60,252 nt of DNA from assembly GCA_005239725.1 (NCBI GenBank), contig SBBM01000023.1:1-60252 (forward strand). Reading direction: 5' to 3'. The stretch's first letter is position 1; the number at the start of each line of letters is the position of its first letter. The translations under genes were made by a program, and so were the position numbers. The notes under the pieces were generated by a model. That model was not told the DNA's origin and did no database searches. It worked only from the letters and a program-made list of their open reading frames with translations. Origin of the DNA: Planctomycetales bacterium. GTDB taxonomy: Bacteria > Omnitrophota > Gorgyraeia > Gygaellales > Profunditerraquicolaceae. Shown here one piece after another: positions 3,148-60,067 of the stretch.

Positions 3148-3690
3148 CTAACTCTTATCATTTATTAATCCTATTCCTGCGCATAGCGCCTTCCGGTTAA
3201 TCTCAATTAAATCCTTTTTCCCCTGCGGCGCCATATCCTTAATTACCCGCAAAATATTTTTTTTATCCAGGACCTTCTTTCCGGCGATAAAAGCGCCTAA
3301 AGCCACTACATTGGCAACTTTGACATTGCCTAATTTTAAAGCCGTGCCTGTAAAAGGCAGGCCCATAATACGCGCCTTAGCGCTTACCTTCCCGGTAACT
3401 AAAGAACTGTTAAAGAGCAATAACCCGTTTTCTTTAAGCCTTGGCTTAAACCGCGATAACGATAGGCCATTCATGGCAATCAAGGTATCGGCCTTTTCCA
3501 CATAAGGCGAGCCGATTTTGCGGTCGGATATTATTACCATACAATAGGCGCTACCTCCGCGCACTTCTGCCCCGTAAGCAGGGAGCCAGGTAACTTCCCT
3601 GCCTTCTCTTAATGCGCCTTGAGCCAGGATTTTTCCGAGAAGCATTATACCGTGCCCGCCTGCGCCGGCAATTATAATCTTTTCTCTCAT
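3148..3690 (-). CDS. 2-oxoacid:ferredoxin oxidoreductase, gamma subunit
   Basis: 180 aa. IIIAGAGGHGIMLLGKIL N-terminus. Operon context with the alpha, beta and delta subunits. Confidence 0.8.
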   Translation of the reverse strand: MREKIIIAGAGGHGIMLLGKILAQGALREGREVTWLPAYGAEVRGGSAYCMVIISDRKIGSPYVEKADTLIAMNGLSLSRFKPRLKENGLLLFNSSLVTGKVSAKARIMGLPFTGTALKLGNVKVANVVALGAFIAGKKVLDKKNILRVIKDMAPQGKKDLIEINRKALCAGIGLINDKS

Positions 3691-4415
3691 TTAATTCTCC
3701 TCAGCGGGAATTCTTTCGTCATTGTATCCCTTATCCAGGACATCGCCTTTTCAGAGGACATCTCCCAATAGGTCGGGCAGGGAGATAGAATCTCAACCAA
3801 AGAAAAGCCTATATTATCAATCTGGTTCTGGAATGCCTGTTTTATCGCCCTCTTTGATTTCAATATTTCTTGAGGGTTATGCAAAGATACCCGCTCAACA
3901 TATTTTACAGCCGGTAATGTTCCTAATAAAAGGGAGATATTTAAAGGGTACCCCTGGAAGCGGACATCTCTGCCTTTAGGTGTCGTGGCTGTCTTTTGCC
4001 CAAGAAGGGTAGTAGGCGCCATTTGCCCTCCGGTCATCCCGTAAATCGCATTGTTAATAAATATCGCAGTGATGTTTTCCCCGCGATTAGCCGCATGTAT
4101 GGTTTCATTTGTGCCGATAGCCGCCAAATCCCCGTCTCCCTGGTATGTAAACACGATATTATCCGGCCTTACCCTTTTTATAGCCGTTCCCACAGCCAGG
4201 GCGCGGCCATGCGCTGCTTCAGTGCAGTCAAAATTCCAGTAATCATAGGCGACTACCGCGCAGCCAACCGGAGCAACCGCGATGACTTTTTCCCTGATAT
4301 TTAATTCGTCTATTACTTCGGCGATTAAGCGATGGGCTAGGCCATGCCCGCATCCGGCGCAGTAATGCGTAGTTACATTCTTTAAAGATTCCGGACGGCT
4401 AAATATTTTTTTCAT
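3687..4415 (-). CDS. 2-oxoacid:ferredoxin oxidoreductase, beta (TPP-binding) subunit
   Basis: YCAGCGHG, GDGDLAAIGTNE TPP motif. Overlaps its neighbours by 4 and 17 nt. Confidence 0.85.
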   Translation of the reverse strand: MKKIFSRPESLKNVTTHYCAGCGHGLAHRLIAEVIDELNIREKVIAVAPVGCAVVAYDYWNFDCTEAAHGRALAVGTAIKRVRPDNIVFTYQGDGDLAAIGTNETIHAANRGENITAIFINNAIYGMTGGQMAPTTLLGQKTATTPKGRDVRFQGYPLNISLLLGTLPAVKYVERVSLHNPQEILKSKRAIKQAFQNQIDNIGFSLVEILSPCPTYWEMSSEKAMSWIRDTMTKEFPLRRIK

Positions 4416-7932: not shown

Positions 7933-9189
7933 TTAACTGGCGTCTTCATTTACCTCCCTGACAGAACTGAGAAAAGAACCTTTGGCCAATATTGTTTTTA
8001 CCGAATCGCCGGGTTTTAATTTGTCTGCCTCTCTGATAATTGCCCCGTCGGGCATAAGCATAGTCAGGCTGTAGCCGCGCGATAATATGGAAAGGGGGCT
8101 TAGGGTCTCTAATTTTTCAATTAAGGATTTGAACTTTTCTTTTAACATATTCAAGAAATGCGCTGCATTTGAATTTAATGCGTTAACCAGCTCATCAAGC
8201 AGCTGCTGCTTTTCCAATAGCCGGTCTAAGGGGCTCTTGAGCATATGCCTTAAAGCCACAAGGCCATGGCGCAGATCAGCAATAAACGTTGAAAGTGAAG
8301 AGTTTAACCTGTATTTATAAGTGTCTATCTGAGCAAGCAGCGCGTTTTTCTTATCCACGATAACCTTGGCTGCGGCTGACGGTGTTTCCACAAATACATC
8401 CGCCACAAGGTCGGAAAGCGTAACGTTTATCTGATGGCCAACGGCAGAAATCGTAGGTATTCTGGAATTATATACTGCCCTGGCAACGGCCTCTTCATTA
8501 AATGACCAGAGGTCTTCGAGGCTACCCCCTCCGCGGCAGATTATGATTACATCCACTTCCTTTCCCGCAAAATGCGGGATCCCGCCCTCACCTTCATTCG
8601 CTTGGCGGGAATATTTATTAAAGTCTTCGATTGCCTCGGCTATCTCCCGCCAGGCGCCCTCGCCTTGCACCCTTACCGAGCGTATCAGGACATCTACGCA
8701 AGGGGCGCCTTTCTTAAGTATCTGCAATATATCCCTCACTGCCGCGCCGGCGCTAGAGGTAACAATGCCAAGCCGAAACGGCATAAGGGGAAGCGGTTTT
8801 TTATGTTCAGGGGCAAACAGGCCCTCTTTAAGCAACCTGGCCTTTAACTGCTCAAAAGCCAACTGCTGCGCGCCCACCCCTTCAGGCTCAATCTTTTCTA
8901 CGATTAACTGGTATTGCCCGCGCGGAGAGTAGACTTCAATCCTGCCGAAGCATATTACCTTAAGCCCGTCTTCAATCTTAAATTTAACTTCGCGATTGGC
9001 GCGGATAAACATCGCCGCTGCCAGGACCGAAGCTTCATCTTTTATGGTAAAATAAAAGTGGCCGGATGTAGCTACTTTAAAATTAGAGACCTCCCCCTCA
9101 ACCCAGACCTCTCTGAATGTGTTCTCTAAAACTACTTTTATATCGCGGGTAATCTCGGATACCGTATAGATGTGCCTGGTTTCTACCAT
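7933..9189 (-). CDS. xseA: Exodeoxyribonuclease VII large subunit, carrying an in-frame palindromic-element insertion
   Basis: OB-fold N-terminus VWVEGEVSNFK, GIVTSSAGAAVRDI, RGGGSLEDLWSFNEE. Confidence 0.9.
   Translation of the reverse strand: MVETRHIYTVSEITRDIKVVLENTFREVWVEGEVSNFKVATSGHFYFTIKDEASVLAAAMFIRANREVKFKIEDGLKVICFGRIEVYSPRGQYQLIVEKIEPEGVGAQQLAFEQLKARLLKEGLFAPEHKKPLPLMPFRLGIVTSSAGAAVRDILQILKKGAPCVDVLIRSVRVQGEGAWREIAEAIEDFNKYSRQANEGEGGIPHFAGKEVDVIIICRGGGSLEDLWSFNEEAVARAVYNSRIPTISAVGHQINVTLSDLVADVFVETPSAAAKVIVDKKNALLAQIDTYKYRLNSSLSTFIADLRHGLVALRHMLKSPLDRLLEKQQLLDELVNALNSNAAHFLNMLKEKFKSLIEKLETLSPLSILSRGYSLTMLMPDGAIIREADKLKPGDSVKTILAKGSFLSSVREVNEDAS
8563..8610 (+). repeat. Double-hairpin palindromic element, 48 nt, inside the xseA coding sequence
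   Basis: TCCCGCA-AAA-TGCGGGA | TCCCGCC-N17-GGCGGGA. Contains GCGGGATCCCGC at 8574-8585. Confidence 0.85.
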
Positions 9190-15315: not shown

Positions 15316-15567
15316 AAAAAAAATCCCCGCATTGTGCCGTTGGCTTGATGGGGCTGAACCGTTTAGGTTACAGGTGGGTGCCTCCCTTTAACGCCTAAGC
15401 GATAAAGGAGTCTAAGCACCCATTATTTTGGTGTTGGTCCACCAATCATCAATTTCCCAACGTGCACCGCAGGGATATCTTTCCGTCCGCTTATTTCATA
15501 TATCGCGGCATCCCGCCTGCTATTGTATAGCTTGGCGGGAAAAAGAACTTTTCTTTCTCCTCCAGGC
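15316..15567 (-). ncRNA. Candidate structured small RNA or leader (~250 nt) of unknown class
   Basis: Promoter TTGACT-N17-TATACT (15602-15574, minus). Long-range helix 15457-15474 with 15325-15343. Internal hairpin TGGGTGC...GCACCCA at 15375-15422. U8 run at 15316-15323. No plausible ORF. Confidence 0.45.
15483..15544 (-). repeat. Double-hairpin palindromic element copy (intergenic, minus orientation)
   Basis: Minus strand reads TTTTTCCCGCC-AAGCTATACAATAGCA-GGCGGGA TGCCGC-...-GCGGAC. It is nearly identical in its first hairpin to the 44947 copy. Confidence 0.8.
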
Positions 15568-17405: not shown

Positions 17406-19511
17406 CTACCTGAATTTGGCTTGAAATTTATCCGCCAACACGCCGGATATGGAAGAATGAAGCGGGGTTACCTCTGCTTCGGTTAAGGTACGTTCGCAAG
17501 AACGATAAAGGCAGGATATGGTTAAGCCTTTAAATCCGGCAGGGATTTGTTTACCTTTATAAGAATCTATGATTTTAGTCTCGGCAAGTAAATCTCCCGC
17601 GCCTTCCTTTATTACTTGCAGTATTTTTCCCACCGGAACATCATCTTTAAGTATAAGGCTTAAATCCCTGGAGATGCCGGGATATAACGGCAGGGATTTA
17701 AATTCCCGCTTTAAGCTTATAGAGCCGGACAACTTTTCCAGGGAAACCTCGGCAACAAAGGCATCCCTGTTTTTTATTTCAAGGTTATCCAAAACATCCC
17801 TTTTCAGCTTGTGGAGCGCGCCTATCTTTTCTTTGCCTAAAGCCACTTCTATCTTATAAGCATCGGGCGTAAGATTAAAATTGTAATCTCTGATGCCCAG
17901 CCTGTCGAAAATAACTTGTAAAATTCCTTTTAGATGCAGAAAGCCTGCTCCATCCTTTACCTGCCCTTGCTCAAACCAGAGGCTTCTTACGCCGCATAAA
18001 GCAATGCCCAGGATTAACTCCTCTTTTGGCATGCCGTTCTCTTTGGAAAAACCTTTGGCGATTTCAAATATATTAATGTATTCCTGTTTTTGGTTAAGAT
18101 TAACAGCCAGACATTTACCCAGGCTGGGGATAAGAGTCGGCCGTAAAATCTCTTGTTCCCTGCTTAAAGGATTTAAAATTTCCGCGCTCTCGGCATAATC
18201 TTGGCCAAAACCTTTTAACAAGCCCCTGTCAATAAGACTGTAAGTAATTACCTCGTTTAGGCCCAACCCTGTAAGAATATTTTTGATGAGCCCAACCTGC
18301 TCTCTTAACCCCGGCCTGTTTATCCCCGGGGTAATCACGGGCAGGGTGTTGGGTATATTTTCATAGCCGTATATGCGGGCTATTTCTTCAACCAGGTCAA
18401 CCCCGGTTTTTACGTCCGGACGGAAAGATGGCACCTTAACATTTAAAATATTTTTTCCTTTTGATTCAACCTTAAAATCCAAGTTGCTTAATATAGATTT
18501 TATTTTGGCCGCGGCGATATTTATGCCTAAATTTTTATGGACGAATTCCGCATCCAGGGCGATTATTGTTTTCTTTTTCGCGAGACTTCCGGAATCTTTA
18601 ACTAAAACTAATTCTCCTCCGGCTAATTCCCGGATTAGCTCTGCCGCGCGGGAGGAAGCCTTTTCAACCAATTCAATATCCACTCCCCTTTCAAATCTAT
18701 AGGAAGATTCGCTCTCTACCCCCAGCATTCTTCTCCCCCGGCGGATGAGCACAGGGTCAAATACCGCCGCCTCAAGGAGCATATTTACCGTTCCTCCGGC
18801 AACTTCGCTGTCTTTTCCGCCCATAACCCCTGCGACAGCCACAGGTTTTTCTCTGTTCGCAATAACTAAAATTTCGGGGTTAAGCGCTTTTTCCCGCCCG
18901 TCAATAATCGTTATCTTCTCGCCTTTCTTTGCCCGGCGGATAATTATTCTATCGCTGTTTAATTTATCCAAATCAAAGGCGTGTAGAGGCTCCCCCAGCT
19001 CAAACAAAACGTAATTGGTAATATCGACAATGTTATTTACACTGCGGCAGTCTAATAATTCCAGCCTTTTTTTAAGCCACTCCGGCGAAGGTCCGACTTT
19101 TACCCCTTTGATTATTTTAGCGGTGTACAAGGGGCAGTCTTTTTTATCTTGAACATTTATTGTTAATGTTTTAGCGTTTAGCGGGTAGCGTTTTCCCGCA
19201 ATGCTATCTCTTAGCTTGCGGGATCCCGCTCTACGGGAAGCGTATAGGATTTTGTTTCTACTATCCGCTATACGCTCTACGCTATGCGCTCGAATTTTTG
19301 CCTTTGTTATTGCCGCTACTTCCCTGGCGACCCCGGCCACGCTCAGCCAGTCCGGACGGTTAGATGTAATTTCGATCTCAAAAATAAAGTCTCCACCGCG
19401 CCCTTCCAGAGATGTAACTTCCAGGCCAGCCATGGTAAGCTTATCGGCAAGTTGTGCCGGCGGAATCCTAATATCTACGAAGTCTTTTAGCCAGTTATAT
19501 GTAATTTTCAT
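17406..19511 (-). CDS. pheT: Phenylalanyl-tRNA synthetase beta subunit. It lacks the N-terminal OB/tRNA-binding domain and carries an in-frame repeat insertion.
   Basis: MKITYNWLKDFV, NRPDWLSVAGVAREVAA, DITNYVLFELGEPLHAFD, SSYRFERGVD, C-terminal FDX-ACB-like end. Confidence 0.9.
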   Translation of the reverse strand: MKITYNWLKDFVDIRIPPAQLADKLTMAGLEVTSLEGRGGDFIFEIEITSNRPDWLSVAGVAREVAAITKAKIRAHSVERIADSRNKILYASRRAGSRKLRDSIAGKRYPLNAKTLTINVQDKKDCPLYTAKIIKGVKVGPSPEWLKKRLELLDCRSVNNIVDITNYVLFELGEPLHAFDLDKLNSDRIIIRRAKKGEKITIIDGREKALNPEILVIANREKPVAVAGVMGGKDSEVAGGTVNMLLEAAVFDPVLIRRGRRMLGVESESSYRFERGVDIELVEKASSRAAELIRELAGGELVLVKDSGSLAKKKTIIALDAEFVHKNLGINIAAAKIKSILSNLDFKVESKGKNILNVKVPSFRPDVKTGVDLVEEIARIYGYENIPNTLPVITPGINRPGLREQVGLIKNILTGLGLNEVITYSLIDRGLLKGFGQDYAESAEILNPLSREQEILRPTLIPSLGKCLAVNLNQKQEYINIFEIAKGFSKENGMPKEELILGIALCGVRSLWFEQGQVKDGAGFLHLKGILQVIFDRLGIRDYNFNLTPDAYKIEVALGKEKIGALHKLKRDVLDNLEIKNRDAFVAEVSLEKLSGSISLKREFKSLPLYPGISRDLSLILKDDVPVGKILQVIKEGAGDLLAETKIIDSYKGKQIPAGFKGLTISCLYRSCERTLTEAEVTPLHSSISGVLADKFQAKFR
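19172..19290 (+). repeat. Composite element: heptamer arm (TAGCGNN x3), double-hairpin core, inverted heptamer arm. Entirely inside the pheT coding sequence.
   Basis: Left arm at 19172-19192. Core TCCCGCA-N16-TGCGGGA TCCCG-CTCTA-CGGGA at 19194-19238. AGCGTATAGG. Right arm ATCCGCT ATACGCT CTACGCT ATGCGCT at 19263-19290. Confidence 0.85.
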
Positions 19512-42475: not shown

Positions 42476-44905
42476 ATGTACACCAGAAACGAAAAGATAA
42501 TTCCGGTTTATATTGAAGAGGAAGTAAAGGACGCCTATTTAAATTACGCCATGAGCGTAATTGTCGGCCGCGCGCTTCCCGATGTGCGCGACGGATTAAA
42601 GCCGGTGCACCGCAGGATTCTTTACGCCATGCACGAACTCAACCTGGAGCACAATAAGCCTTATAAAAAATGCGCGCGTATCGTAGGCGAGACGCTTGGG
42701 AAATTCCACCCGCACGGAGACATGGCGGTTTACGATACCCTGGTAAGGATGGCCCAGGATTTTTCTTTGCGCTATGCCCTTGTAGACGGACAGGGCAACT
42801 TTGGTTCAGTCGACGGGGATGCCGCAGCAGCTATGCGTTATACTGAAGCCCGGCTAGCCGAAATCGCGGGAGCCATGCTCCAGGATATTGAAAAGGAAAC
42901 AGTTGATTTTGGGCCGAACTTTGACGCCTCGTTAAAAGAACCGCTTTTATTGCCTGCGGTTTTACCCAACCTCTTAGTTAACGGCTCAAGCGGTATTGCC
43001 GTAGGCATGGCTACCAATATCCCGCCGCACAATTTAAATGAGATAGCCGATGCTATAATTTACCTTTTAGACCATCCTGAGGCCGAAGCCAAAGACCTGA
43101 TGCGTTATGTAAAGGGCCCGGATTTCCCGACCGGAGGAGTTATCTGCGGCAAGGCAGGAATTAAAGACGCTTATGCTACCGGCAGGGGTAAGCTTACCGT
43201 GCGGGGAAAGGCAACGATTGAGCACCAGAAAAACGGCAAGGACCTGATTGTTGTAACTGAAATTCCCTACCAGGTGCAGAAGGCTGGCCTCATAGAGGCA
43301 ATCGCGGATTTGGTGGATGAGAAAAAGATAGAGGGGATTTCCGATATCCGCGACGAGTCCGATAAAGACGGCATGCGTATTGTCGTTGAGCTTAAACGCG
43401 ATAGCGAGCCGCAGATTATTTTAAACCAGCTTTTTAAACATACGCAGCTTGAGACTACCTTCGGGATTATCATGCTTGCCCTGGTAGAAAACCGGCCCCG
43501 GGTTTTGAATTTACGCCAGATGCTCGACTGCTATGTTAACCACCGTAAAACCGTTATCCGCAGGCGCACGCAGTTTGAGTTAGATAGGGCTTTAAAGAGG
43601 GCGCATATTTTAGAGGGTTTAAAAATTGCCCTGAAATTTATTGACCGCATTATCAAGTTTATCAAGACCTCTAAAAATGTTGAAGCGGCTAAAGCAGGGA
43701 TGATGAAGGAGTTCGAGCTCTCTGAAATTCAGTCGCAGGCAATATTAGAGATGCAGTTGCAGCGCCTGACCGCGCTTGAGCGCGATAAGATTGACGCCGA
43801 ATACGCAGAACTCCTCAAGAAAATCGAACTCTGCAAGGCTATACTCGCCTGCGAGAAAAAGGTGGGGGGAATTATCAAAGAGGAACTGGAAGAATTAAAG
43901 AAAAAATACGGCGATGAGCGCAGGACCGATGTTGTCGGCGAAGTGGAAGAATTGGAAGTGGAGGATTTAATCGCCGAGGAAGACGTGGTAGTTACTATCA
44001 GCCACGGCGGATACATTAAGCGTCTCCCGGTCTCCGCCTACCGTAAACAGAGGCGCGGCGGCAGAGGGGTTACAGGCGCGGAAGTAAAGGAAGAGGATTT
44101 TATTGAGCACCTTTTTGTGGCCTCCACAAAGGATTATCTTTTGGTATTTACCGATAAGGGCCAGGCGTATTGGATTAAGGTCTATGAAATCCCCCAGGCA
44201 AGTCGTATTTCAAAAGGCAAGGCAATCGTGAACCTGCTGCAATTAAAGCCAGAAGAGAAAATCAGTTCAACTATCCCGGTAAGGGAGTTCTCCCCGGATA
44301 AATACCTGGTAATGGTAACAAAAACCGGGCAGATTAAAAAGACTAAGCTGGATGCCTACTCAAACCCGCGCAAAGGGGGGATTATCGGTATTACCCTGGA
44401 TAAAGACGATGAGCTCATCGGAGTTGAACTTACCGAAGGGAAACAAGAATTGCTCATCGGCACAAAGCAGGGTAAGGCCATACGTTTCCCCGAGTCTCAA
44501 GTACGCGACATGGGAAGAGGCGCGCGCGGGGTGAGGGGTATTTCATTAGCCAAGAAAGACGCGGTAATTGCCATGGTTATCGCCCGGAAAGAAGCTACCA
44601 TTTTAACGGTTACCGAATTAGGTTTTGCCAAGCGCACCCCGTTTAAAGAATACCGCTTGACCCGCAGGGGCGGCAAGGGTATTATTAACATAAGGGTAAC
44701 GGATAAAAACGGCGACGCAGTCAGCTTAAAAACCGTTAATGATAAAGATGAGTTAATGGTTATTACGGAAAACGGTATGTTCTTGCGTTGCGCTATAAAA
44801 GATATACGCACAACCGGCCGCTCGGCCCAGGGGGTACGTTTAATAAAGCTCCAGGACAAGGACCGCGTTTCCTGCGTTGCCCCGGTAATTACGGAAGAAG
44901 AATAA
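42476..44905 (+). CDS. gyrA: DNA gyrase subunit A
   Basis: [35 protein letters not shown] (catalytic Tyr), C-terminal beta-pinwheel repeats. Confidence 0.97.
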
Positions 44906-44908
44906 TCT

Positions 44909-45020
44909 GTCCCCATCGTCTAGCCTGGCCCAGGACAAGAGCTTTTTCCCGCCAGGCTATGGGATAGCAGGCGGGATCCCGCCCTGATGCGTAAAGGGGT
45001 CGGGCGGGACAAGCTCTCGA
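44909..45020 (+). pseudogene. tRNA-Glu(UUC) 5' fragment (positions 1 to ~46), interrupted in the anticodon by a 63-nt palindromic element
   Basis: 44909-44946 is identical to 45268-45305, and 45010-45020 is identical to 45306-45316. No T arm or 3' acceptor strand. Confidence 0.85.
44947..45009 (+). repeat. Double-hairpin palindromic element, archetype copy (63 nt)
   Basis: TCCCGCC-AGGCTATGGGATAGCA-GGCGGGA | TCCCGCC-CTGATGCGTAAAGGGGTCG-GGCGGGA. Confidence 0.9.
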
Positions 45021-45024
45021 TCGC

Positions 45025-45267
45025 ATGTATTGTGTGTATGTTCTAGAGAATGCAAAAGGCAAACATTATATCGGTAGTTGTGAAAATTTAGACCTGAGAT
45101 TAAAACGGCATAATCAAAACAGCGTCAGGTCAACAAAGAATAAGGGGCCTTTTAAAATAATCTATAAAGAGGAATTTTGCACGGTAACGCAAGCGCGTAG
45201 GCGCGAGAACGAACTAAAAAGCTATAAAGGCAACGCCAAATTTCAGAAAACAATAGATAGAATGTAA
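45025..45267 (+). CDS. Stand-alone GIY-YIG nuclease-domain protein (80 aa)
   Basis: YCVYVLENAKGKHYIGSCENLDLRLKRHN (GIY...YIG), ARRRENELK. Its stop codon abuts tRNA-Glu position 1. Confidence 0.8.
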   Translation: MYCVYVLENAKGKHYIGSCENLDLRLKRHNQNSVRSTKNKGPFKIIYKEEFCTVTQARRRENELKSYKGNAKFQKTIDRM

Positions 45268-45342
45268 GTCCCCATCGTCTAGCCTGGCCCAGGACAAGAG
45301 CTTTTCAAGCTCTCGACACCGGTTCAAATCCGGTTGGGGACG
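45268..45342 (+). tRNA. tRNA-Glu (anticodon UUC)
   Basis: Acceptor GTCCCCA/TGGGGAC, anticodon arm AGAGC-TTTTCAA-GCTCT, T arm ACCGG-TTCAAAT-CCGGT. Confidence 0.9.
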
Positions 45343-45395
45343 TTTAATTTCTCCACCCGCAGCGGAGTTCGCTAAACAAGAGCTTAAGGTGCTCA

Positions 45396-59902: not shown

Positions 59903-59977
59903 GGCCCCATCGTCTAGCCCGGTCCAGGACGCGTGCTTCTCAGGCACTAAACACGAGTTCAAATCTCGTTGGGGCTA
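59903..59977 (+). tRNA. tRNA-Glu (anticodon CUC)
   Basis: Acceptor GGCCCCA/TGGGGCT, anticodon arm CGTGC-TTCTCAG-GCACT (one C-U mismatch), T arm ACGAG-TTCAAAT-CTCGT. Confidence 0.8.
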
Positions 59978-60067
59978 TTCTACCGGTTCTCCCCCCCAAT
60001 CTATACGCTAGAGGGCGGGATCCCGCTCGCGGTAAAATAAAATGGCGGGAAAATCTGGTTGGGGCTA
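59978..60067 (-). repeat. Palindromic-element copy inserted at the tRNA-Glu(CUC) 3' end, followed by a 17-nt duplicate of the tRNA end
   Basis: CTATACGCT plus GGGCGGGATCCCGC core at 60012-60049. AAATCT[C/G]GTTGGGGCTA occurs at 59961-59977 and at 60051-60067. Confidence 0.8.

Follow-up and report, generated by a model that had tools for sequence, protein, structure and literature searches.

Between gyrA and glmS on contig SBBM01000023.1 of a Planctomycetales bacterium (GCA_005239725.1; Omnitrophota according to GTDB) we found a 359-nt cassette that is inserted in the anticodon loop of a tRNA-Glu(UUC) gene and rebuilds the 5' half of this gene. The whole stretch analysed, 60,252 nt of this contig, is referred to as the window. 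The cassette contains a short open reading frame (ORF) for a GIY-YIG nuclease of 80 amino acids (aa) and a double hairpin that we call H. It is a discrete block, it is present in some and absent from other close relatives, tRNA sequence is locally duplicated around it, and every orphaned tRNA piece carries a hairpin. We consider it very likely that the arrangement represents a mobile, tRNA-resident selfish cassette. By a small measure we favour a selfish, free-standing GIY-YIG cassette of the homing type that resides in the single tRNA-Glu(UUC) gene of Omnitrophota. Whether it may have spread by nuclease-driven homing into the tRNA gene is, judged from the sequences compared here, evenly balanced.

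The features of the locus are collected in Table 1. As the original prediction had described, the ORF matches PF01541 and its stop codon directly abuts position 1 of an intact tRNA-Glu(UUC). A second copy of tRNA positions 1–46 had been reported 4 nt upstream of the ORF, with 38 and 11 identical nucleotides, and both exact direct repeats were confirmed. The longer one corresponds to raw tRNA positions 1–38 (canonical 1–35), the shorter one to canonical positions 36–46. According to ARAGORN the anticodon is at raw position 37, so that U35, its middle base, is the last one in the 38-nt copy. This 5' orphan comprises the 5' strand of the acceptor stem, the D arm, the 5' strand of the anticodon stem and the loop up to U35. 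An exact repeat of this length cannot be chance. Missing from the earlier description is H, 63 nt that separate the 38-nt from the 11-nt piece. The 80-aa ORF is the only one in the 359-nt block, which contains no integrase gene. We detected no Shine-Dalgarno-like sequence in the 4-nt linker before the ATG, and the 1–12 nt linkers of other loci do not share one either. A terminator-like site was not found between 44500 and 45500. A group I intron, a ribozyme or another known RNA motif was also considered for the insert; Rfam searches at the gathering threshold and at E ≤ 10 returned only the tRNA, and the best sub-threshold matches belong to unrelated families.

Table 1. Features of the cassette locus and further copies of H in the window
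Feature	Position	Strand	Evidence and remarks
gyrA, 809 aa	42476..44905	+	ORF list; upstream flank, stop 3 nt before the orphan tRNA piece
Promoter-like site TTGCCC-18-AATAAT	44877..44906	+	Consensus scan; overlaps the end of gyrA
5' orphan, tRNA-Glu canonical 1–35	44909..44946	+	38/38 identical to 45268–45305
H, 63-nt double hairpin between U35 and C36	44947..45009	.	Fold, pattern, relatives
Orphan continuation, tRNA 36–46 (CAAGCTCTCGA)	45010..45020	+	11/11 identical to 45306–45316
Linker tcgc, 4 nt before ATG	45021..45024	+	Sequence
GIY-YIG ORF, 80 aa, ATG to TAA, UPF0213-type single domain	45025..45267	+	Pfam PF01541
Intact tRNA-Glu(UUC)	45268..45342	+	ARAGORN; Rfam tRNA, 57.4 bits
glmS, 612 aa	45396..47234	+	ORF list; downstream flank
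H copy in 3' tRNA-Glu orphan	59983..60066	+	ccggttc, H (59990–60050) in the T loop (56/57), aaatctggttggggct; without ORF
H copy, 48 nt, in xseA (ORF 7933–9189, minus strand)	8563..8610	.	Strict pattern; in frame, encodes SRQANEGEGGIPHFAG
H copy, 45 nt, in pheT (ORF 17406–19511, minus strand)	19194..19238	.	Strict pattern; in frame, encodes SRRAGSRKLRDSIAG

Searches with the ORF returned 40 homologues of 48–78% identity, and all matches with a taxon name came from Omnitrophota metagenome-assembled genomes. A genome scan with one genome per species gave 25 loci, 23 of them from Omnitrophota (individual loci and contigs are labelled L001 and so on). In all 23 Omnitrophota loci, which stem from independent assemblies, a tRNA-Glu(UUC) starts 0–38 nt after the ORF match. 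ARAGORN calls this tRNA in 22 loci; in L001 it is cut by the contig end with its 5' part still visible. Many of the homologous ORFs read into the tRNA and end in PIV or PSSSLV, and these tails are the translated 5' end of tRNA-Glu (GTC CCC ATC GTC TAG and G TCC CCA TCG TCT AGC CTG GTC TAG, respectively). A partial tRNA-Glu copy bearing H precedes the ORF in 23 of 23 loci. The commonest layout is that of the window: tRNA 1–35, H, tRNA 36 to 46–49, 1–12 nt, ATG. In L001, L010, L016 and L156 H is located in the D loop (13/14) and the tRNA copy stops at about 27–30, and L003, L005, L014 and L019 have H at both the D-loop and the anticodon-loop position.

Locus L015 belongs to the closed genome of Ca. 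Velamenicoccus archaeovorus (LiM, from an enrichment culture). As this genome carries the cassette, an assembly artefact is excluded, and we give an artefact or a chance repeat practically no weight as an explanation. Several related loci do end at contig edges beside the cassette, so that assemblies are indeed affected by repeats at this place. However, the same architecture is found in more than 25 independent assemblies including the closed genome, the 38-nt repeats are shorter than reads and k-mers, and a match of 38 in 38 positions is not accidental. Contigs end within about 100–200 nt of the cassette or the adjoining tRNA in 6 of the 23 Omnitrophota loci (L001, L005, L006, L008, L017, L020), and in L155 a run of N covers one tandem unit. 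Because repeats break short-read assemblies, the copy number of the cassette is probably under-reported.

Empty loci were collected from metagenomes by scanning for the gyrA stop (GAAGAAGAATAA) followed after up to 30 nt by a tRNA-Glu with an uninterrupted anticodon loop. This exact-match pattern, which yields a biased sample, gave 34 loci in which the gyrA stop is followed by an uninterrupted tRNA-Glu; most continue into glmS. The same gyrA end precedes the tRNA in these 34 and in many occupied loci. In most empty loci the glmS start (ATGTGCGG..) lies about 10–250 nt past the tRNA, and L109, L111, L128 and L131 are among the few with another downstream gene. No GIY-YIG relative was detected by tblastn in the 34 loci. 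Related genomes with and without the cassette could therefore be set side by side, represented by 23 occupied Omnitrophota loci and 34 gyrA–tRNA-Glu loci without the ORF. Neither a simple tandem duplication of tRNA-Glu with an ORF that drifted in later nor a genome-wide lack of tRNA association among the homologues was found.

A neighbour-joining tree was calculated from the last 250 residues of GyrA for those loci whose gyrA sequence was long enough, 11 of them occupied and 25 empty. The two groups are intermingled on this tree. GyrA identity amounts to 96% between L012 (occupied) and L109 (empty), and to 94% between L001 (occupied) and the empty loci L132, L108 and L118. The cassette shows presence/absence polymorphism at a conserved site, as is typical of homing genes. 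Followed from gyrA, DNA homology between L012 and L109 (91.6% nucleotide identity) extends to the base directly preceding H and no further, and that between L001 and empty loci to the D-loop H of L001. Because the homology of L012 and L109 stops between U35 and C36 where H begins, the window differs from the empty alleles by a single insertion of 359 nt. This block (44947–45305), inserted between U35 and C36, consists of H (63 nt), tRNA 36–46 (11 nt), the linker tcgc (4 nt), the ORF (243 nt) and tRNA 1–35 (38 nt). Its right end (45268–45305) joins the resident positions 36–75 to form the intact gene, and the resident positions 1–35 become the upstream orphan. The prediction of a mobile cassette at tRNA-Glu therefore holds insofar as the block is discrete, a 5' orphan is left behind and an intact gene results. 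The direct repeats also show that the 5' rather than the 3' part of the tRNA is regenerated. The proposed boundaries (45021–45316, with insertion into the variable loop) have to be revised: they are not the most economical ones, given that homology to the closest empty allele stops between U35 and C36.

The earlier boundaries correspond to a history in two steps, in which the ORF together with tRNA 1–46 inserted at 46/47 and H, unrelated to it, settled afterwards in the orphan, which as a dispensable sequence would offer safe ground in a compact genome. As an overall explanation we consider this clearly unlikely, but such a history may well lie at the origin of the cassette. It would fit the observation that the orphan runs to canonical positions 46–49 before the ATG in Omnitrophota and that the ATG lies in the T loop of the orphan in the candidate phyla radiation (CPR, Patescibacteria; see below). 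Because the orphans of both groups extend into the variable/T region, the ORF junction in this region is shared and probably ancestral. In addition, H and other TCCC..GGGA hairpins are found in many non-essential spots (glmS leader, T-loop orphans, coding genes). However, two events are needed where one suffices to lead from the empty to the window allele. Among the 23 Omnitrophota loci plus L156, L160 and L164 there is no cassette with a hairpin-free orphan. The orphans of other phyla also have hairpin-altered anticodon arms, which would be unexpected for an accidental passenger.

Occupied loci show further signs of recombination. Fragments of the tRNA 3' part were found within 400 nt downstream of the intact tRNA at 15 of 22 occupied loci in comparison to 2 of 32 empty loci (Fisher test, p = 1.8e-6, with phylogenetically non-independent loci). 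The fragments are of two kinds. The first comprises tRNA positions from about 14–27 to 35, H and positions 36–75 (L002, L012, L020, L022 and others), the second H in the T loop followed by the last 17–20 nt of the tRNA (L003, L004, L014 and others). L018 has fragments of the second kind, but the H core was not detected beside them. In L002 one and the same H sequence is found upstream of the ORF and downstream of the tRNA, and a direct repeat of tRNA 21–35, H and tRNA 36–46 brackets ORF and tRNA. The two H copies of L012 differ at about one base in seven, while the neighbouring pieces of tRNA sequence show no mismatch to the functional tRNA, which points to gene conversion with the functional gene as donor and the orphans as recipients. 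L008, L023 and L156 have tandem cassettes. L012 further has an ORF for a predicted membrane protein of 159 aa (3492–3971), located after the 3' orphan and before the next conserved gene. L109 lacks this ORF, which may represent cargo or else an indel of independent origin.

H is made up of two hairpins, TCCCGCC..GGCGGGA and TCCCGCCC..GGGCGGGA, which are stacked on the retained anticodon stem; the palindromic core of the element is CGGGATCCCG. The predicted fold has a free energy of -55.1 kcal/mol (z = -2.7). The strict pattern TCCCG-N-CGGGATCCCG-N-CGGGA occurs three times in the window and in none of 100 shuffles, and a fourth, slightly imperfect copy follows tRNA-Glu(CUC). H has the properties of a palindromic (MITE-like) repeat family, with four homologous copies at unrelated sites in 60 kb and terminal inverted symmetry. 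The orphan with the fourth copy begins about 5 nt after tRNA-Glu(CUC) (59903–59977); its T stem resembles the UUC isoacceptor and not the adjacent CUC gene. Two copies lie in coding genes (Table 1). The stretch encoded by H in xseA falls mostly into gaps of the alignment with E. coli XseA (8txr), the window protein being about 15 residues longer, and the copy in pheT is part of a stretch that is about 25 aa longer than in PheT (2rhs_B). Both are translated as S-R...A-G peptides, as a check of the reading frame showed for each. The empty-site contig L114 contains an H of 60 nt (8212–8271), again a multiple of three, inside an ORF of 2978 aa. Because the coding copies are in frame and multiples of three, we conclude that H is a DNA-level insertion that is translated and not spliced. 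H as a spliced intron was considered and is unlikely, as the coding copies of 45, 48 and 60 nt are in frame, the xseA copy lies largely in an insertion relative to E. coli XseA and no complete tRNA-Glu with H was seen.

We scanned the window, the 25 genome loci, L090 and the 34 empty-site loci for H with stems of at least 6 bp. This gave 32 hairpin-checked copies with common ends and loop motifs. Among 27 distinct copies the first four stem pairs of hairpin 1 and the first five of hairpin 2 show little or no variation. Pairing is retained at pair 6 in 100% and at pair 7 in 96% of the sequences, with substitutions on either strand, pair 6 being required by the detection and pair 7 not. The loops of hairpin 1 share AGCTAT..ATAGC between D-loop, anticodon-loop and coding-region copies, from which homology of the copies follows. 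H is located at the loop positions 13/14, 35/36 and 56/57 of tRNA-Glu(UUC) or (CUC) fragments, with and without the ORF. H orphans without ORF are found in the window (59983–60066), L107, L121 and L090; in the H orphan of L090, 18 nt of the upstream flank are duplicated together with tRNA 1–27. At the examined loci H was never seen in a complete or intact tRNA-Glu. No target-site duplication flanks the mapped H insertions, and no transposase partner was identified. In viral contigs the strict pattern had 79 matches, nearly all of which lack a stem extension and represent chance, L090 being the sole relevant one.

Other small hairpins with TCCC..GGGA-like ends followed by TTCGCTAAAC or TTAATTCGCGC were noticed in the window (45352–45386), L108, L118, L120, L122, L126 and L136. 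They are located in the tRNA–glmS spacer or the glmS leader, at times duplicating the AAGGTGCTC ribosome-binding region; in L121 the hairpin forms part of a T-loop orphan. These genomes appear to be riddled with several families of hairpin inserts. A 10-nt repeat, ACAAGAGCTT (45376–45385), was considered as the relic of a 3' orphan and discarded, as it belongs to the other hairpin family in the glmS leader (L126, L136, L108).

The sequence of the nuclease identifies it as a minimal GIY-YIG enzyme of the UPF0213 type. The match to PF01541 covers residues 1–70 of the 80-aa ORF (E = 1.1e-14, 54.9 bits at a cut-off of 22.6). The family profile matches the UPF0213 proteins BH0048 (PDB 1zg2, E = 1.6e-13) and EF2693 (PDB 1ywl, E = 4.5e-10), with SLX1, I-TevI and UvrC following far behind (E of at least 1e-3). 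NCBIfam and PHROGs yielded nothing beyond weak similarity to the N-terminal catalytic motif found in homing and group I intron endonucleases. The match to TIGR01453 (group I intron endonuclease) is confined to its first 40 positions and stays below its cut-off. The catalytic domain alone covers the protein, and a separate DNA-binding domain was not found in it. R25, H29 and E61 do not vary across 37 homologues, and conservation reaches at least 90% for Y5, Y15, I16 and G17. All 22 translated Omnitrophota ORFs are intact (77–106 aa); the downstream copy of the tandem in L023 is frameshifted and has decayed. The median ratio of nonsynonymous to synonymous differences (pN/pS) is 0.27, and dN/dS is 0.15 over 55 unsaturated pairs, which indicates that the nuclease is kept by selection. 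Saturation of the synonymous sites in comparisons of most lineages (median pS 0.83) shows that the sampled cassettes must have separated long ago. Identities of the GIY-YIG proteins and of GyrA are not correlated (Spearman -0.10 for 45 pairs, with narrow ranges on both sides and low power), which argues weakly against pure vertical descent. We take UPF0213 to be the family of E. coli YhbQ. In the searchable literature we found neither a described function of UPF0213 nor a link of the family to tRNA genes or mobility.

Outside the Omnitrophota, too, related ORFs abut tRNA genes and are accompanied by partial or pseudo-tRNA copies, which supports the original prediction; we found them at tRNA-Val and tRNA-Pro in other phyla. 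In L025 (Berkelbacteria) a tRNA-like 5' orphan is followed by an ORF whose stop codon is the TAG of the D stem, and then by an intact tRNA-Val(GAC). The 89 homologues of the L025 ORF come from Patescibacteria, and the three of its closest clusters that were examined (L139; L142 and L143; L144) show the same pattern at tRNA-Val(GAC or UAC). In the orphans of these clusters a GGTCGCC-nnnn-GGCGAC hairpin takes the place of the anticodon arm, and the ORF starts with its ATG in the T loop; L139 has an additional 3' orphan with a hairpin of the GGTCGCC type. On the IMG/VR contig L149 (36% identity) the ORF precedes a tRNA-Pro(UGG) with three pseudo-tRNA-Pro copies around it (100–730). Two of these are complete. 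The copies have TCCCGA-TCTTAA-TCGGGA in place of the anticodon arm and an identical 11-nt spacer, and ARAGORN calls none of them. The stem motif of this arm is the stem motif of H. L024 (Lentisphaerales) is a looser case, as the intact tRNA lies upstream of the ORF: a TCCCGATCAAATCGGGA hairpin is followed by tRNA-Thr and then by the ORF, with a degenerate tRNA-like 5' piece at its end. The homologues on viral contigs are distant (28–36% identity), and L149 alone abuts a tRNA. L145 and L146 (45–50% identity to the CPR ORF) are part of sugar-metabolism operons without a tRNA nearby, so that the tRNA association is a property of one clade and not of all UPF0213 proteins.

The latter two loci bring up the explanation that the ORF is a domesticated or ordinary UPF0213 host gene. 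It would have been fixed beside tRNA-Glu in an ancestor of the Omnitrophota after one rearrangement and would now be inherited vertically and lost repeatedly, without present mobility and without any action on the tRNA gene. Besides the operon genes L145 and L146, the ancient divergence of the ORFs (saturated synonymous divergence), the purifying selection and the fact that the cassette is always found at the same gene are in line with this view. We nevertheless consider it improbable in the light of the tRNA duplication at the junction, the tandem cassettes, the enrichment of tRNA fragments, the pseudogenised copy and the finding that ORF and GyrA identity are uncorrelated. Likewise, the nested layouts at tRNA-Val and tRNA-Pro and the association of ORF and tRNA-Thr in L024 are hallmarks of insertion or recombination.

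The main rival to a homing-type cassette starts from the hairpin. H would be a small palindromic mobile element that enters the loops of tRNA-Glu genes and now and then other sites, autonomous together with the adjacent GIY-YIG ORF and non-autonomous alone, and the nuclease would recognise TCCCG/CGGGA hairpins, cutting by structure or by sequence, and not the tRNA gene. Orphans would arise since a strike of H in an essential tRNA is survived only with a duplicated intact copy. Many observations agree with this explanation. H is found at three loop positions of tRNA-Glu, with and without the ORF, and in frame in xseA, pheT and the 2978-aa ORF (48, 45 and 60 nt) without target duplication. Its AGCTAT..ATAGC loops are common across the types of sites, its stems covary (paired in 100% or nearly so at positions 6–7), and in every cassette it lies 12–25 nt upstream of the ATG. 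A TCCCG(A)/(T)CGGGA stem replaces the anticodon arms of the L149 pseudo-tRNAs and flanks the ORF locus of L024, the CPR counterpart being GGTCGCC/GGCGAC. L090 offers an H orphan with duplicated upstream flank and no ORF. The nearest structural relatives of the nuclease include the structure-specific SLX1, and a problem of self-immunity does not arise. We still hold this explanation to be unlikely. Both hairpins are located upstream, so that the ORF is not bracketed by the ends of the element, unlike in a normal pair of an autonomous element and its miniature inverted-repeat transposable element. The ORF is single-copy, always at tRNA-Glu(UUC) and never with H elsewhere. The H copies within one genome are highly diverged without a sign of a recent burst, and the empty-site contig L114 retains its H within an ORF. 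To our knowledge no GIY-YIG transposase has been described, which counts against the explanation as well.

A broader possibility, which we put forward with reservation as it seems doubtful to us, is an as yet undescribed class of mobile elements spanning several phyla, in which a minimal UPF0213-type nuclease and a cognate hairpin colonise tRNA genes (Glu, Val, Pro, possibly Thr). The hairpin would be of the TCCCG/CGGGA type in Omnitrophota, Lentisphaerota and the contig from the viral catalogue, and of the GTCGCC/GGCGAC type in Patescibacteria. The host would survive because an intact tRNA is rebuilt or carried along, and pseudo-tRNAs with a hairpin-replaced or split anticodon arm would be left behind. 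If true, this would amount to a hairpin- or structure-directed GIY-YIG mobility that is distinct from classical homing and from known transposases.

For the homing-type cassette that we favour, the following course can be envisaged. The native tRNA-Glu promoter would now transcribe orphan, H, ORF and tRNA as one unit, which is weakly inferred from a consensus match overlapping the end of gyrA and from the lack of terminators. RNase P, which cleaves at the 5' end of tRNAs, would then free the mRNA from the tRNA. Since the ORF of most relatives does not end until within the tRNA, the processed mRNA would have no stop codon there, and the level of the nuclease would therefore presumably be kept low. 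The nuclease would break tRNA-Glu DNA that lacks the cassette, or else structured DNA present at the gene, and repair from a cassette-bearing copy would follow with the tRNA halves serving as universal homology arms. H may be a cis element of the cassette, either as binding or operator site of the nuclease or by disrupting the target and the tRNA fold of the orphan.

Several points weigh against this course. The protein is a bare catalytic domain of 80 aa that lacks the DNA-binding domain of classical GIY-YIG homing enzymes. The donor tRNA is identical to the tRNAs of empty loci, with no position that differs consistently, the disruption affecting nothing but the orphan. A nuclease specific for the tRNA would therefore cut its own allele as well; an immunity mechanism is not evident, and the protection of the donor that is expected of homing endonuclease genes was not seen. 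The interleaving of occupied and empty loci could also result from repeated loss of an ancient insertion, the synonymous sites of the ORFs being saturated. Since H orphans arise without ORF (59983–60066, L090, L107, L121), H may lie outside the cassette. Finally, the first two steps are weak inferences, the promoter being a consensus match and the role of RNase P being drawn from general knowledge. The missing DNA-binding domain, the unexplained self-immunity and the H orphans without ORF keep our confidence in homing close to even.

Other small modules were noticed in the vicinity of the gene. Toxin-antitoxin pairs are inserted between gyrA and the orphan tRNA of some cassette-bearing populations, in L155/L156 (493–1187 and 345–1039) and L164–L168; they are of the types HEPN plus nucleotidyltransferase and HicA plus HicB/UPF0150. 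The gyrA–tRNA-Glu spacer is a hotspot for small selfish modules. The tRNA-Glu(UUC) of L012, L105, L114, L117 and L123 reads GGTCCRAATCC in the T loop, so that C takes the place of the usually universal U55 (pseudouridine 55). Unrelated to the cassette, a 6S RNA was found in the window (15320–15478, minus strand; Rfam RF00013, 62.3 bits).

tRNA genes are the classic landing pads of integrase islands, and the phage enzyme SegB demonstrates that tRNA loci can be remodelled by GIY-YIG nucleases. The cassette is a chromosomal version of minimal size (359 nt) that acts differently: by rebuilding the 5' half it places a nuclease gene between a tRNA promoter and the tRNA. For the widespread UPF0213 proteins this provides a concrete genomic behaviour that can be tested. 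Recurrence at different tRNAs in at least two further phyla, with hairpin-altered arms of pseudo-tRNAs, points to a general mechanism and not a quirk of one lineage. H itself represents selfish DNA similar to that of Rickettsia, located in frame in essential genes (xseA, pheT) of Omnitrophota. As the closed genome of Ca. Velamenicoccus archaeovorus LiM from an enrichment culture carries the cassette, experiments are feasible. In practical terms, assemblies are interrupted at the cassette, and owing to it gene prediction yields ORFs whose tails derive from the tRNA (PSSSLV, PIV).

In the full-text literature searched (most subscription journals being outside reach) we found no published description of this arrangement, and a paper on the phage nuclease SegB was the only relevant one. 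H resembles the palindromic elements of Rickettsia and palindrome-associated elements derived from IS200/IS605, which have hairpins at both ends and cause no target duplication. H differs from these in its smaller size (45–80 nt), in its two hairpins in tandem with the fixed bases TCCCG/CGGGA, in its preference for tRNA-Glu loops and in that no transposase has been identified for it. The UPF0213 proteins BH0048 and EF2693 are the best sequence matches of the nuclease, with the same size and a single GIY-YIG domain; some members of this family differ in being ordinary operon genes (L145, L146). With group I introns in tRNA anticodon loops and intron endonucleases of the I-TevI type the cassette shares the insertion in the anticodon loop, the GIY-YIG domain and the presence/absence at a conserved site. 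In contrast to them it contains no ribozyme according to Rfam, its nuclease has no DNA-binding domain, and tRNA function is kept by duplication of the 5' half at the DNA level and not by splicing.

Closest in the logic of restoring a tRNA are integrase islands and prophages. They likewise use a tRNA as landing site, re-supply the displaced part and leave an orphan fragment as direct repeat. However, they are kilobases long, depend on tyrosine or serine integrases and restore the 3' part, whereas the cassette has 359 nt and no integrase, restores the 5' part and has its ORF between the tRNA promoter and the tRNA. The closest case overall is SegB, which carries a separate DNA-binding region. SegB of T-even phages is a free-standing GIY-YIG nuclease encoded beside tRNA genes that cuts tRNA-containing DNA, and tandem repeats of tRNA plus segB arise by recombination via microhomology that the tRNA's 5' end shares with segB's 3' end (PMC13096335). 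A segB gene truncated by 28 C-terminal aa remains functional (PMC13096335). The nuclease gene beside tRNA genes and the tandem units, present here in L008, L023 and L156, are common to both systems. SegB is a larger phage enzyme that is encoded between intact genes; the cassette described here encodes a bare 80-aa domain of the UPF0213 clade, is chromosomal and is nested in one tRNA gene with a rebuilt 5' half and a hairpin.

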